Source: Felis catus (Eukaryota). From it: DNA of 64,000 bases. The notes under the pieces were generated by a model. The model was given only the letters and a program-made list of their open reading frames with translations. It searched no databases and was not told the DNA's origin. This document shows positions 1,298 through 37,874 of this stretch, piece by piece; positions within the stretch are counted from its first letter, which is position 1; every line of letters starts with the position of its first letter. The position numbers were made by a program, and so were the translations under genes. The stretch covers positions 8,928,001-8,992,000 of the forward strand of contig NC_058369.1 of NCBI RefSeq assembly GCF_018350175.1. The letters run 5' to 3'.

Positions 1298-3928
<2,631 letters not shown>

Positions 3929-16167: not shown

Positions 16168-16390
16168 GGGGCGCCTGGGTGGCGCAGTCGGTTAGGCGTC
16201 TGACTTCAGCCAGGTCACGATCTCTCGGTCCGTGAGTTCGAGCCCCGCGTCAGGCTCTGGGCTGATGGCTCCGAGCCTGGAGCCTGTTTCCGATTCTGTG
16301 TCTCCCTCTCTCTCTGCCCCTCCCCCGTTCATGCTCTGTCTCTCTCTGTCCCAAAAATAAAAATAAAATAAAAACATTGAAAAAAATAAA
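16168..16390 (+). mobile_element. Young felid CAN-SINE inserted in the tail of an older SINE (16028-16160)
   Basis: TSD aaataaataagataga. Confidence 0.92.
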
Positions 16391-16448
16391 TAAGATAGAA
16401 TTCACATGGAATCTCTAGGTACCCCAAATAGACAAAACAATCTTTACT

Positions 16449-16687
16449 TTTTTTTTAATTTTAATTTTTTTTTCAACGTTTATTTATTTTTGGGACAGAG
16501 AGAGAGAGAGAGAGACAGAGCATGAACGGGGGAGGGGCAGAGAGAGAGGGAGACACAGAATCGGAAACAGGCTCCAGGCTCTGAGCCATCAGCCCAGAGC
16601 CCGACGCGGGGCTCGAACTCACATACCGCGAGATCGTGACCTGGCTGAAGTCGGACGCTTAACCGACTGCGCCACCCAGGCGCCCCC
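16449..16687 (-). mobile_element. Young felid CAN-SINE
   Basis: TSD aaaacaatcttta. Confidence 0.92.
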
Positions 16688-16798
16688 AAAACAATCTTTA
16701 AAAAGAAAAAAGTTGGGCGTGTCACACTCCCTGATTTTAAAACTTAAAGCTCCAGTAGTCAATACATTAAGGCACTGGCAGAAGGACAGATAGGTAGA

Positions 16799-19700
16799 GG
16801 GGGACTTCGAAAAATCTTCTGCAGGCAGGGGCGCCTGGACGGTTCAGTCGGTTGAGTGACTGTTGATTTTGGCTCTGGTCACCATCTCACATGGTGGGCA
16901 TAGAGCCTGCTTGGGAGTCTCTCTCTTCCTCTCTCTCTCTCTCTCTCTCTGTCTCCCCCTCCCCTGCTCATGTGCATTGCTCTCTCGCTCTCTAATAATA
17001 ATAATAATAATAATAATAGAAAAACATTCTGCAGGCATATCCAGCAGCCAGAGAATTTGGGGGAAGATGCTGAGCTCAGCCATGGTCTCATGTAGGGCCT
17101 GGATGCACCCCAAGAACACCAGAGGGAGAGTTAGAAACATTTGTGCAGGCAGCCTTCTATAGCCAACCACCAGTCAGTACCGCGTGTGGTCCTGGGGTGC
17201 TCTCCCTGGGCCTCCTGCTCTGCCTGGACTGTCTTCCTTTTCATAGAGGAACTAAAAATATCCGGGGAAGGGGCACCTTAAGCAGTTGGTTAAGCGTCTG
17301 ACTTTAGCTCAGGTCATGATCTCATGGCTCATGAGTTCGAGCCCCATGTCGGGTTCTGGGCTGACAGCTCGGAGCCTGGAGCCTGCTTCGGATTCTTGTG
17401 TCTCCCTCTCCCTGCCCCTCCCCCATTTACACTCTGTCTCTTTAAAATATAAATAAACTATATATATATATATATCCATCCAGGGAAGGCTTATCCTAAC
17501 AGTGGGACCCCAAGATGGGGGAGGTGGCCAGAGGGATTTTCACCAGCCTATCCGCCCTAAGCCAGGCCCAACTTCTGGGAGGGGATTAAGAAAATTACAG
17601 GGAGCGCTTCCAATGTTTGGAACCCATTATGGGTTGAATTGTGTCACCTAAAGTTCAAATATTGAAGTCCTAACATCAAGTACCTGAGAACGTGATCTTA
17701 TTTGGGAACAGGGTCATTGCACGTGTGATTAAGATGAATGGGGTCTTCGGGGTAATTCATGATGACTAGTGACCTTATAAAATGGGGACACTTGAGCACA
17801 GGCTCCCACAAGGAGAAGGTCATGCGAAGATGAGTGCATCTACAAACCAGGAAACACCTAAGATGGCCAGGAAACCCCCAGAAGCCAGGGGAGAGGCAGG
17901 GGACACAATCTCCCTCACAGACCTCAGAACGAAACCACCCTGCCCACACCTTGAGCTCCACCTTCTACCCTCCTAAACTGTGAGATACGTTTGTTTAAGG
18001 GGCCCAGCCTGGAATGGTACTTTGTTATGGCCGTCCTAGCAAATTAATAGAGAAGCCACCCTGGGTTGCACCCTAGCTCTGGATGAGCTCCGTAGGATAC
18101 TTAGAATAACATTTCGAGAGGTGCTCCAAATGTATAGAAGCCGTGTGGGACCACAGTTAGGCCCAGAGCACCTTCTCAGGCTTCCCTGGCTAGATGTGGC
18201 CCAAGCCCAGGACACAACGGAGATTCAGAGAAATTTCCAGAAAGCCCGTCCGACAGCCATGCCTCATGAAAGATGGGGGCTGTGCCCAGTGAACTCTCCT
18301 AGGGTGTCCTTAGCATGTTCACGCTGGAGATTTAGAAAATTTGGAACATACTAAAATGGGCCCCATGTGGGACTGTGGCTGGTTGGGGTCCTCCTCCTAG
18401 CCCTCCCCATCCAGCCCAAGCCATTCCCAGCCTCCAAAGAGGGACTAAGAAAACTTTGGGGAGGCATTCTCTGTGACCATAACCCAGGGTGGTCTGAGGC
18501 CTAGCTTTGGATGCCCTCTGCAAGCCTGCCAGGCTGACCAGGAATTGCAAATGTCTCCGTGAGCTGAATCAGATCACCAGGGCTAACATGGGACCTGGCG
18601 ACATGGGCCGATGCTTCCACTGATGGGGACTTAAAACATTAAGGGGGTACCTCCGACAACCAGGCCCTTCAAAGATCCACATTCTTCTCCAGGGAACCCT
18701 CATAGTGCATCCCTAACTGGCCCCAACACCGTGCCTCCCCTCCAGGAAGGGGAACTGGAAACGCTTGCAGGAAGTGCACGTGACAGCCAGGACCTATGGC
18801 ATCACCGTGGCCAGACCCGGATGCCTCCCCCAGTCACCACTGACACGAGACAAGCTGATTCTCCACCATTGGTGTAGAAGGGATCTCCTATCCCCTGTGC
18901 AGGATGGACACCTAAGCGCCCTGAAAATGTTTGTGCCAACTACTGGGCCCAATCTGGGCTGGGGACCGGACCTGGACCCCCTCCCTGGGTGGGAGGGCCT
19001 CCTTGTCTGGCTGGCTTGGTACCATGGAGAGAAACAAAAAAACCAAAAAGTGTTCAGGAGGTGCATCCAAGGAACCCACACGTGACTGCTCTTCCCTGGG
19101 GTAGGGAGTTGACGGTGGCCTTCCTCCCCTCAGGAAACATTTTCAGAAGGGACAGGTAATGACTGGAATCCCACTGAGGACAGCTGCCTACCAGTAGCAA
19201 CCTCCTCGAGCCGCCCTTGTAGCCTCCAAAGGATTCAGCCTTCTGAAGGAGCCTTGGAATGCTTTTTGGAAGGCCCACACCCCCAGGGCATCCCTACTCA
19301 CACCTTTTCCACTTGCCGGAGCCAGTGCCCCACCCCAGCCCGAGGCAGAATTGGAAACGGTTCAGGCAAGTGCTGCAGATTACCAAGTGCCCGCTGGGGA
19401 CCGCCACCAGATCCAGTGAGCCCACCCCTGCATCCCTCCGGCCCGGGATGGACCCTGCCACTGCAAGGAGACATCTAGAGATTTGAGGGAAGTGTCTCAG
19501 AACAGGCCCCACTGGGACTGCGGTTGGGCCCGAGCGTCTCCTCTCCCGAAGGCAAAGTTTCAGGATGCACAGCCAGCGACCCTGCTCCACGCGGGATCCA
19601 CGCAGGTTGGCTGGCAGCCAGGGGAGGGGAACGCTCCCAAGGGCTTCCTGGCCATGATCCCGGTCTCAGGAGGGAGAATCTAGAATTCTCAGGAGACACG

Positions 19701-21440
19701 CCCAACAATCAGGCACCAGGTGAGAATACGGCCCAGCCCAGGACAAACTACTGTCACCCGCAATGTCCCAAAAGGAGTCCCCACGTGCAGAGGGGACCAC
19801 CGTGTGCCAGCCAGCCCACCCATGCAGTTTCTAGATGCCGCTCTCCTCTATGTTGCAGTGACAATCTCAGGGGGACCCATGCAGCCGGGATGACACTGCT
19901 GTCCGCCTCCTGGAACTCCGCCTTGGGTTTGATGGCCGGATCCCATCCCAGGCCCACACCGCTGAGCTCCGGGGAAGATATAAAAGCAGCCGCTAGGTGG
20001 CGCGGGTCAACCAGCGCGACGGGGATGACCTTGGAACCCGCCCCCCACCCCCACTTCCACCTCCCCGGGTGCCGCTTTGTGTGGGTTCCACCCAAATTAC
20101 GTATCTTGGCCCATAGCAGGCGGGAGTGCCTGGTGGGCCCGGGACACCCTCCCCGCTGGTCCCTAGCCCAGCTGGCTGCTGCCTTTGGAGGGGGAGGTGG
20201 AAACATTTTCCAGTGGCATATGTGAATAGGGCCCACGTGTGACCATGGCTGGGCCTCCCTGGATGGCTGGGGCTGCTTGCCTCCCCGAGAGGGAGACCGA
20301 GAACAATGAGGGGAAGGAGGAGGGCATCCAGCAACCAGAGTGCAGTCCTGACCTCCACAGAAGGGCATAGAAAGTTTTCAGGAGACGTTCCCAATGACCG
20401 GGACGCAAGAGTGACACCACCTGAGCCCAAGGCATCCTCCAGGAGTCTACCTGTCCAGCCAGGCCAGTCGGGGTCTTCCCTTTGTTATTTTTGGGTTTTG
20501 TTTTTGTCCTGAAAGAGAGCGAGAGTAGGGAAGGGGCGAAGGGAGCCAGAATCTTCAGCAGACTCCACACTCTGTGCAGAGCCCACGGCAGGGCTTGATC
20601 CCACGACCCCGGGATTGTGACCTCAGCCGAAATCCAGAGTTGCACCCTCAACAGACTGAGCCACCCACGTGTCCCCACGGTCTTCCCTCTAAATGGGGAT
20701 GTGGATACGTTTTCAGGAGATACCACCAGGCGGGTCCAATACCAGGCCCTGTGCAGAACCACAGCCTGGCCCTGAGCACCCACCCCGAGTCTCTCTGGCC
20801 GGTCTCTCTGTGCTTGTCCCTGTCACCAGAGAAGAGCTGGAGAGGTTTACAGCGGTATAGCCAGCAATCGGGCACCATGTGGGACTGAGGGAGGACCCAG
20901 GGCAACCTCCACGGATCTCCTTGGCCAGCCGGGACAGCGCCTGCCATTGGAGGGGGATTTGGATACATTTTCAGGAGATCCCATGGCCTACCAAGCCGAG
21001 GATGTCATCCCTAGGGTGCACTTCCTGGCCAGCCTTTTTCCTGCCACCAGAGGAATACTTACAAGCAAATTTGGTGGGTACCTGCTAAGATGGGACCCTA
21101 CATAGGACAGCAGATGGCCCTGGGGCACAATCCCCAGACTACCCTGGCTGGCTCTGCTGCCTTTCCCTTCTGGAGGGAAACTTTGAAAAGTTTAAACTTT
21201 AAAAAGAGGTGCATCAAGTGACCGGACCCCAGGCAGGATGGCCACTTCCTTGGGCCTCTCTCGTCCATCTCTTTATGGGGAGACTTAGAGAAAATTTCGA
21301 GGCCCATGCAGCACCCAGGCCCCATCTGGGACCTCATCCAGGCCCACAGTGCCCTTCCTGGGGGTTCCTAGCTACCCAGGCTCATGCCTGCCACCCAAGA
21401 GGGACTTAAAAACATTTTCTGGAGGTGCATCCGACTGCAG
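16799..21440. repeat. Highly diverged tandem array, ~110-125 bp period, about 28 recognisable unit cores, interrupted by SINEs (16828-17017, 17270-17475, 20482-20677) and an MLT1 LTR
   Basis: Recurring core GGGGACTTAGAAACATTTTCAGGAG-like motif, often followed ~35-45 nt later by a GGCCCCATGTGGGACTG-like motif. Confidence 0.75.
17626..18049 (+). mobile_element. MLT1 (MaLR) solo LTR
   Basis: ttatgggttgaattgtgtc...ttatttgggaacagggtcattgca...ctgtgagata...tttgttatggc...ctagcaaattaata. Confidence 0.85.
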
Positions 21441-22092
21441 GTTGGTCTGGGATGCCCTCCTGGCCTCCATGCACCTTTAAGGGACCTGCACAAGGCTGTC
21501 CTTCCTGGAGGGAAAGTCCCTCATCTTCAAGTCTAAACCCCCAGTTTCCTCCCGGAGCCTCCTTCCTCGGTAACACACCCCAGAGCACACCAGGGTGCGC
21601 CAGGCTCTCCGCCTGCTCCTGGGAGCCCTGCAGCTCTAGTCCACCTGCCCCAGGCCCCTCTTTGGGGCCTGGCTCCAGTTCCACCCCCCTCACCAGGACC
21701 TCCTAGATTCCTTGCCCTCAGGGCCTGGCTCCCCCAAAGCCAGGTCTGGAAGCCCCCCTACCCCCACCCGCCAGGTATGTTCGGTTCTCTGGGCCCATAT
21801 CCAATGCAGGCCCCCCGCCCCCCAGTGGCTCCTAGGGACAGCTGTGCCACAGCCTGAGTGGACAAAGGAGGGAAGGAGGAGTGGAAGACGGAGTGGTGGG
21901 TGAGGTGGGGTGTGAATGGTGTAGTCTGGAGTCAGGATTCAGGCCGGGAAGTGACTTTCCTGCAAGGCCTCAGGTCAAGAGTCACATAATGTTTGCTGAC
22001 TTTTCTAGGTCACAAATTAAATCCCCTCCAAAAAAACAGCAACAAAAAACCCCCACTCAATCACACCTTGACCCAAGGCCTGGTAGTGGCAT

Positions 22093-22098
22093 TTTAGT
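22093..22098 (-). terminator. Candidate variant polyA signal ACTAAA for MAN2B1
   Basis: 65 nt after the stop, followed by a GU/U-rich downstream element; I saw no AATAAA nearby. Confidence 0.55.
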
Positions 22099-22162
22099 GG
22101 CTTTTGTTGGTGGCAGAAGCAGCAGGAGGAGGAGGGGGAGAGTCCGCCTGCTCCCAGCGTGT

Positions 22163-37874
<15,712 letters not shown>

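Follow-up and report, generated by a model that had tools for sequence, protein, structure and literature searches.

The ZNF791-MAN2B1 interval and its tandem array

In the window (the whole 64,000-nucleotide stretch of Felis catus DNA that was analysed), a decayed tandem array lies between a zinc-finger exon and the 3' end of MAN2B1:

2225..3928, + strand: C2H2 zinc-finger exon, assigned to ZNF791 by synteny (PMC11734915 and an earlier sequence-only reading)
16688..16798, + strand: terminal part of an old dispersed repeat; homology ends exactly at the first core and sets the array's left edge
16797..21490, + strand: decayed tandem array of about 29 recognisable units, ancestral unit about 123 bp, recognised by pair counts, PWM and HMM
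22093..22240, - strand: last coding exon of MAN2B1; stop codon at 22165-22163, hexamer resembling a poly(A) signal at 22098-22093

The array lies 12.9 kb from the end of the exon assigned to ZNF791 and downstream of MAN2B1, whose 3' end is about 600 bp away; the MAN2B1 exon upstream of the last one matches lysosomal alpha-mannosidase (1o7d_E, E 1.9e-33). The dispersed repeat on its left, which we take to be L1 ORF2-type sequence, has 39 further genomic matches at 73-83% identity, none of which reaches beyond query position 111 (window 16798). Placing the array's start at a boundary between AT/L1-rich and GC-rich DNA, as the sequence-only reading did, is largely circular, because the left edge is the end of the L1 fragment and the rise in GC comes from the array itself. 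ZNF791 is reported to be imprinted in dogs and livestock, its arrival has been proposed at ~94 My, and the imprinted DMR maps to the CpG islands of its promoter, a long way from the array (PMC11734915). The array was not described in the literature that we searched, and the word 'tandem' is absent from the main text of PMC11734915. Among sequencing runs, no RNA run was listed as containing it, and 14 runs labelled by guess contained 0.82-0.90 of the query words.

Within the TE-masked region, 197 same-strand pairs of 24-mers are identical at 18 or more of 24 positions, against 23 opposite-strand pairs and 10 +/- 6 same-strand pairs in 10 Markov-3 control sequences. With an ungapped PWM, 22 of the 26 cores listed previously were found again and two more came to light (18536 and 20289); a gapped HMM, whose training set included 15 of the units that it recovered, found all 26 on one strand, as had been claimed, plus one more at about 18920-18990. 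With leave-one-out training, 19 of 19 tested units scored 15.6-43.0 bits, compared with a best score of 9.2 bits in the 200 kb upstream. The cores start at the following positions:

+ strand, first part: 16797, 17122, 17243, 17576, 18093, 18216, 18322, 18437, 18536, 18622, 18746, 18912, 19033, 19125, 19245
+ strand, second part: 19342, 19464, 19543, 19668, 20188, 20289, 20357, 20692, 20828, 20950, 21050, 21173, 21276, 21397

When TEs are excised, the proposed periodicity of ~110-125 bp is significant at lags of 110-129 (z 8.1; z 4.8 at 90-109), with none of 100 controls as high. In a cruder exact 5-mer spectrum nothing stands out at 100-129 (z no higher than 1.2), the peaks being confined to 220-229 and 330-339 (z ~3); Tandem Repeats Finder did not report the array. 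The spacing of mostly 100-125 bp noted earlier thus holds as a periodicity but not as a unit length: 9 of the 25 measurable intervals are 120-125 bp, the full-length unit is ~123 bp, and the shorter units carry independent deletions at different places. The second motif said to trail the core was found again, ~45 nt into the unit. The alternating spacings and the 220-229 lag peak also suggested a dimeric higher-order repeat (~122 + 100 bp), which we rejected since deletions in short units differ in place and units two apart are no more alike than others.

Decay, insertions and age of the units

The entire unit is homologous between copies, core and flank alike. Twelve dinucleotide columns show the signature of CpG decay, compared with 1, 1 and 3 for the GC, CC and GG controls; the unit's ancestor was CpG-rich and has decayed through methylation-type mutation. 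Divergence to the consensus is K ~0.45-0.5 and mean pairwise identity ~0.45-0.47, the best pair reaching 0.60-0.61. Similarity does not depend on distance (0.43 at lag 1, 0.44 at lag 2, 0.43 at lags of 8 or more); neighbours are no more alike than distant units, indicating neither recent homogenisation nor a higher-order repeat.

Four insertions interrupt the units:

16828..17018, + strand: SINE within the first core; target duplication of 19 nt (16809-16827 / 17019-17037, 2 mismatches)
17270..17477, + strand: SINE within the third core; its target duplication is short and imperfect
17627..18051, + strand: solo LTR in the second motif of the unit at 17576; unit sequence continues beyond it
20483..20677 (approximate ends), - strand: SINE in the pre-core part of the unit at 20692, with a 10-nt direct repeat on both sides

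The first two SINEs are presumably of carnivore type, and the LTR, as in the sequence-only reading, we take to be of MLT1 type. The LTR has 41 further genomic matches, the full-length ones 66-71% identical. With this LTR and three SINEs lying inside its units, the array predates all four, the MLT1-like LTR among them as had been proposed, and because its units are far more diverged than that LTR it is probably pre-eutherian, older than the eutherian radiation. The two cores broken by SINEs were never repaired afterwards.

DNA searches of the genome found only the array, and two core patterns with 3 mismatches allowed matched nothing else in 2.4 Gb; single-copy status holds at this sensitivity of DNA and pattern search, which very diverged copies could escape. 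The unit HMM found no further arrays in the 200 kb upstream, including the surroundings of three ZNF exons. The earlier failure to match a named repeat was repeated in our Rfam comparison, in which no family matched (best E 0.45, with each of the 5 hits well short of the gathering score). The array might instead descend from some named satellite or dispersed repeat, such as an ancient L1 5' monomer array or a catalogued satellite; in favour are the L1 fragment that abuts it exactly and the CpG-rich tandem monomers typical of L1 promoters. However, the adjoining L1 is on the + strand and meets the array with its truncated ORF2 end, not with a 5' end, and the confinement of the 3-mismatch patterns to the array disfavours a family of many hundreds of copies at up to 30% divergence, making this origin extremely improbable. 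A cluster of structured small RNAs (snoRNA, miRNA, tRNA or 5S) was also rejected, with no family match, 0 consensus pairs and 0 tRNA; a bacterial promoter scan, irrelevant to a mammal, found nothing.

We consider the array to be, on balance, a fossil local tandem repeat whose units have decayed essentially neutrally. A CpG-rich, GC-rich unit of ~123 bp would have been amplified head-to-tail at a single locus, presumably by unequal crossing-over or slippage. Homogenisation would then have ceased in an array methylated in the germ line, and the units, bounded on the left by the L1 fragment, would have drifted through CpG to TG/CA changes, independent deletions and the landing of one LTR and three SINEs. 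As a set, the units probably lack function. The significance of such a fossil is modest: it would show that arrays older than the eutherian LTR waves survive where standard repeat finders do not pick them up.

The nearest known class is the decayed GC-rich minisatellite or VNTR, which shares the head-to-tail order, one orientation, CpG-rich ancestor, single locus and TE interruptions; the array is far more diverged than TRF-detectable arrays and probably older than the eutherian radiation. DXZ4, ICCE and D4Z4, which are CTCF-bound GC-rich macrosatellites, resemble it as CpG-rich one-locus tandem arrays that are old in mammals and lie beside a chromatin transition, but its units are 123 bp rather than kilobases, unhomogenised, CpG-depleted and without a CTCF motif in each. 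Gamma satellite (GSAT), with a GC-rich unit of ~220 bp and CTCF/Ikaros barrier activity, invites comparison through its GC-rich tandem unit, the weak 220-229 lag peak and the barrier idea; by period and structure we set it apart, given the ~123-bp monomer, the independent deletions and the lack of dimer structure. Moreover, gamma satellite is pericentromeric (PMC11266386), whereas the array is an interstitial single 4.7-kb felid locus. Local repeats such as those of Firre (PMC4820808) are likewise present in many copies at one locus (here ~29 in 4.7 kb, none found elsewhere), and the array's unit falls inside their 67-804-bp range, with a possible CTCF link. However, Firre repeats are 85-93% identical within species through concerted evolution and all R0 copies bind CTCF, whereas units of the array are ~45% identical pairwise and a single CTCF-like site is predicted among them (PMC4820808). 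The array also differs from Firre in being strictly head-to-tail.

Core conservation and the coding frame

The sequence-only reading held that cores are better kept than spacers. As a raw contrast this stands (conservation 0.50 in the core and 0.35 in the flank, a difference of 0.150), but its 'spacers' are not unrelated DNA, for they align as parts of the unit. When CpG columns are left aside the contrast fades: identity is 0.69 in the core and 0.70 downstream (p 0.34), and across the 12 full-length units the core minus the next 60 nt is -0.01 (p 0.59). Neutral simulations with identical motif discovery gave contrasts of 0.127 +/- 0.023, 0.152 +/- 0.038 and 0.152 +/- 0.037 (14 runs each), from an ancestor derived from the data and with a final GC of 0.47-0.53 compared with the real 0.58; because simulated GC ends below real GC, the neutral model is imperfect. 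The AT-rich core is conspicuous for two reasons: no other part of the unit is low in CpG and distinct in composition, and it was by the core that units were detected. A pattern of conserved cores set in diverged spacers can thus come from nothing more than CpG decay and ascertainment, which calls for caution over similar findings.

Several observations count against neutrality. Across all 28 aligned units the core exceeds the next 60 nt by 0.055 (p 0.03), and in full-length units the 30 nt preceding the core are less conserved (p 0.017). A simulation without ascertainment yielded a core of 0.41 +/- 0.04, below the 0.47-0.50 of the real array. Gaps number 2.76 per unit, a deficit of ~2 SD relative to simulation at the LTR-control indel rate (3.53 +/- 0.34), although a lower indel rate fits (2.65 +/- 0.29). 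The low simulated GC and a weak codon signal in one frame, described below, also belong here. All tests of constraint were made within one genome.

The claim built on the core contrast was that selection keeps the cores as sites of one protein, for example a KRAB-ZFP, in a homotypic platform that brings in chromatin machinery where the ZNF block ends. The adjacent KRAB-ZNF cluster, the raw contrast, the residual excess with all units and the mild indel deficit would fit such a platform. The claim nevertheless fails, since full-length units show no core excess and neutral simulation yields an equal contrast. Furthermore, the cores are ~47% identical pairwise with no invariant column, SINEs and deletions have struck them, and as CTCF sites they do not qualify (none of the 28 units reaches 8 bits; median -4). 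If ZNF791 arrived at ~94 My (PMC11734915), the array appears to be the older of the two, and an origin as the target of that protein is thus unlikely. Taken together, these observations make a platform highly improbable.

We also weighed whether the array is a fossil repeat-coding exon, a 41-codon low-complexity repeat with core EG[D/E]LE[T/K]FSG (+) from a gene long dead whose DNA has decayed. The consensus unit of 123 nt is 41 codons and open in one + strand frame, where pN/pS is the lowest of six (0.82; others 0.84-0.92), synonymous and conservative changes exceed column-permuted expectation (p 0.04 for the unit, 0.011-0.015 for the core) and one core codon is Asp/Glu in 18 of 28 units via four codons. 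But these nominal p values (0.01-0.08) come from 6 frames x 5 subsets x 2 measures and lose their significance once corrected, a length divisible by 3 has a 1-in-3 chance, and 4 of the 6 frames of the consensus are open. Many units contain frameshifts and stops, in agreement with the earlier view that there is no consistent coding frame: only 10 of 69 gap lengths are divisible by 3, and the units hold 27 stops where 29.5 are expected, i.e. no depletion. No credible protein homologue emerged: Pfam gave 2 hits on 11 translations, both below cut-off; word-indexed searches of the longer proteins found none, which is weak evidence by the tool's own note; and a six-frame search of the genome found nothing better than E 0.5 besides the array itself. 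A profile of 16 unit translations, searched against 1.84 billion proteins, returned 9 hits scored via summed short matches, which we rejected as repetitive look-alikes (6 wasp gene models and, from metagenomes, 3 unnamed proteins, of which 2 are peptide-repeat and 1 bacterial-type). A coding origin is accordingly very unlikely; were an early-branching mammal to retain the unit as a coding repeat, the array would matter more.

A CTCF-like site in the middle of the array

Units are sparse at the array's centre, which holds its one strong CTCF-like motif:

19780..20130, no strand: unit-poor, single-copy middle; CpG o/e 0.56-0.63, compared with 0.27-0.31 elsewhere in the array
19987..20005, + strand: CTCF-like site, 1 mismatch to consensus, 16.6 bits (0.91 relative), scored with a working consensus and matrix

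No other site within the array reaches 13 bits, and across 264 kb 13 sites do so, this one included; further CTCF-like sites occur at 21813 and 27141. The barrier role that the sequence-only reading also put forward would hang on it. As a single site, it is not a property of the cores, and an array of CTCF sites, suggested by a pre-core stretch that resembles the motif by eye, was rejected on the unit scores given above. Within 150 bp around it lie 12 CpGs (Poisson p 6e-4, ~0.014 over 24 windows), in a window picked after the site was seen. Compared with the unit core, 19987-20005 scores 6.6 bits by PWM, the 95th percentile of shuffles, and the HMM makes no call; the site may, at the borderline, be a remodelled unit core.

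Bound CTCF shields DNA from germ-line methylation. The retained CpGs are what such protection would leave, and with the 16.6-bit score, unmatched in the array at 13 bits or more, they speak for a reading in which the units are neutral but a functional CTCF site in their midst, perhaps a remodelled unit, separates the KRAB-ZNF domain from MAN2B1 as a boundary or serves as a loop anchor. Its position between a ZNF gene reported as imprinted (PMC11734915) and a housekeeping gene would suit that role. Yet a motif match does not equal binding, the CpG window was chosen post hoc, 21813 and 27141 also carry CTCF-like sites, the case for descent from a unit is borderline, and the imprinted DMR of PMC11734915 is far from the array; we regard the proposal as possible but unlikely. 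It agrees with the neutral-fossil reading of the units and differs by giving the locus a function.

A fuller version is more doubtful still: that a pre-eutherian array, among the oldest readable single-locus satellites of mammals, is dead as a repeat while one of its units was remodelled into a protected CTCF site that forms the ZNF791/MAN2B1 boundary across boreoeutherians. If the site were a conserved boundary beside imprinted ZNF791, the locus would matter more. A TATA-like word at ~19978 lies just before the CTCF-like site.

An array between converging genes

The array is a head-to-tail series of about 29 units at 16797..21490 (+), each with an AT-rich core. Counted without reference to the motif of the sequence-only reading, same-strand pairs of 24-mers identical at 18 or more of 24 positions number 197, versus 10 ± 6 in Markov controls (n = 10) and 23 in inverted orientation. 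A PWM finds 22 of the 26 cores listed in that reading and two new ones; a gapped HMM finds all 26 and one further, all on the + strand, with leave-one-out scores of 15.6-43.0 bits (19 units tested). Elsewhere in the window the HMM gives no score above 3.6 bits, and its top score across 200 kb upstream is 9.2 bits. With insertions excised, a lag pile-up gives z = 8.1 at 110-129 bp and z = 4.8 at 90-109 bp, values reached by 0 of 100 controls, so both the tandem array and its proposed periodicity are upheld. Because the units are strongly diverged, the 110-129-bp period is not visible in the exact 5-mer spectrum of the array, and TRF did not report the array.

Features of the locus (window positions, except the first line)
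G000:C2:8928001-8992000, the window in chromosome coordinates of the source genome, of the cat family by its SINE type
2225-3928, + strand, C2H2 zinc-finger exon
MAN2B1, - strand, exon matching lysosomal alpha-mannosidase 1o7d_E (E 1.9e-33)
22165-22163, - strand, stop of the last MAN2B1 exon
22098-22093, - strand, poly(A)-signal-like hexamer of MAN2B1

The array lies between the converging 3' ends of the ZNF gene and MAN2B1, ~600 bp beyond the MAN2B1 end and separated by 12.9 kb from the ZNF stop. The CpG islands that precede the ZNF exon are >22 kb away from it. Dispersed L1-type repeat homology stops at 16798, the position of the first core, and the "boundary" earlier placed at this left edge is merely where the L1-type fragment ends. 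Inside that fragment are two young SINE copies in inverted orientation (16168-16686), 96% complementary over 183 nt and 153 nt apart, and a MAN2B1 intron carries a recent 27-bp duplication (23130-23189, 96% match).

The 200 kb to the left (G000:C2 8728001-8928000, pieces L002-L021) contain 12 CpG-island-like patches as well as three C2H2 exons, all three on the - strand. Candidate ZNF791 promoters are the patches closest to the window, at ~6, 19, 40 and 51 kb to its left. According to the accessible part of PMC11734915, ZNF791 is imprinted in dogs and in pigs, cattle, sheep, horses and goats, with a maternal DMR at its promoter CpG islands. Neither cats nor a tandem repeat is mentioned in the main text of that paper as far as available, and the array is not described in the literature searched.

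Unit structure and age

The unit consensus spans 123 columns. Among 25 measurable core spacings (those >140 excluded), nine are 120-125 bp, 14 shorter and two longer. A true dimer is ruled out because the short units have lost different segments from one another; units two apart are no more similar than other pairs, and the between-core stretch is homologous along its whole length. Many variable columns are TG/CA pairs, and the CpG-decay pattern appears in 12 dinucleotide columns versus 1, 1 and 3 for control dinucleotides, indicating a CpG-rich ancestor that was later methylated; the model ancestor has 15 CpG and 78% GC. Neither a consensus structure of the units nor a tRNA in the array was found, and the best of five Rfam matches has E 0.45, each of the five falling far under its gathering score.

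Two SINEs have inserted inside cores, at 16809-16827 and 17254-17269, each with a target duplication, and a third lies ahead of core 20692. The AT-rich core, site of two of the three array SINEs, resembles an L1 endonuclease target and acts as the sole good insertion site within the GC-rich unit.

Unit 17576 is split by an LTR that has 41 further matches in the genome and whose family is usually dated to early eutherians. Divergence from the unit consensus is K = 0.46 (0.52 for non-CpG sites, leave-one-out), versus K = 0.30, or ~0.15 per copy, for pairs among the window LTR and 17 long copies picked from the 41, a value biased low because these are best hits. The array is therefore about 2-3 times as diverged as the LTR family, assuming that the history was star-like and that local rates are similar, and bearing in mind that a GC-rich ancestor decays faster; together with the split unit, this bears out the suggestion that the array predates the LTR. 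The array is probably also older than the arrival of ZNF791 beside MAN2B1, proposed at ~94 My in the accessible part of PMC11734915.

Searches of the genome with 3.4, 0.8 and 0.5 kb of array DNA returned only the array itself or an embedded SINE, and two core patterns with three mismatches allowed gave one match each, within the array; both kinds of search are less sensitive than a profile search.

Probable neutral decay and the coding alternative

Better preservation of the cores had been taken to suggest a homotypic protein-binding platform. In our first alignment, non-CpG identity was 0.69 for the core versus 0.70 for the downstream part (p 0.34). Among 12 full-length units, the core is kept as well as the 60 nt that follow it (p 0.59), and the 30 nt preceding it are less well kept (p 0.017); when all 28 units are taken, the core comes out slightly above those 60 nt (p 0.03). 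Simulation anchored at true positions, taking no account of how units get found, gave cores of 0.41 ± 0.04 versus 0.47-0.50 in the real array. With real and simulated arrays put through identical data-driven discovery, cores exceeded flanks by 0.150 in the real array and by 0.127 ± 0.023, 0.152 ± 0.038 and 0.152 ± 0.037 in three neutral settings (14 runs each), so the contrast is explicable without selection. Two results count against pure neutrality: gaps number 2.76 per unit, where an indel rate calibrated on the LTR gives 3.53 ± 0.34, and the neutral simulations shed too much GC. On balance we favor a GC-rich tandem repeat of great age, confined to a single locus and decayed neutrally.

A fossil repeat-coding exon, once translated on the + strand with each 123-nt unit giving 41 codons, seems to us quite improbable. 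The consensus is open on that strand, its core reading EG[D/E]LE[T/K]FSG, and pN/pS is lowest in this frame (0.82; 0.84-0.92 in the others), where synonymous or conservative changes are nominally in excess (p 0.01-0.08, many tests made), but stops are not depleted in it and only 10 of 69 gap lengths are multiples of 3. Moreover, a profile built from 16 unit translations free of stops matched nine of 1.84 billion proteins (six repetitive wasp models, three unnamed metagenome proteins), none homologous past a few residues, and other searches for a protein homologue (translations, genome six frames) were negative. The wasp "uncharacterized proteins" (P0001-P0006, up to 2783 aa) look like translated satellite DNA; P0007 and P0008, short proteins with near-perfect peptide repeats and random-looking spacers, resemble translated CRISPR-like arrays.

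Known arrays and CTCF-like sites

By the two features tested, the array belongs to the local repeats class as described in the accessible part of PMC4820808, its units having decayed much further than the Firre repeats there. Unlike DXZ4/ICCE-type arrays, it lacks per-unit CTCF sites and homogeneity; with a CTCF matrix, 0 of 28 units reach 8 bits, and an array of CTCF sites was dismissed. Gamma satellite is excluded by its different unit length.

One strong CTCF-like match (19987-20005; 16.6 bits, one mismatch to the consensus) lies in the unit-poor middle. CpG is retained around it (o/e 0.63 versus ~0.28), with 12 CpG in 150 bp (p 6e-4; ~0.014 allowing for 24 windows). The site may be a remodelled core, but its core score is only at the 95th percentile of shuffles. 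A boundary at this predicted site is plausible. Directly upstream, in the same CpG-retaining patch, a TATA-like word (19970-19986, +) could mark a small promoter aimed at the MAN2B1 3' end. Further CTCF-like sites by the same matrix are at 21813-21831 (-, 13.4 bits), convergent with 19987 (+) over the array's right half, and at 27141-27159 (+, 20.8 bits). The upstream ZNF cluster has two identical copies of a 19-nt CTCF-like site (19.1 bits each), ~195 and ~124 kb to the left of the window (region of L002 and L009), probably carried by gene duplication.
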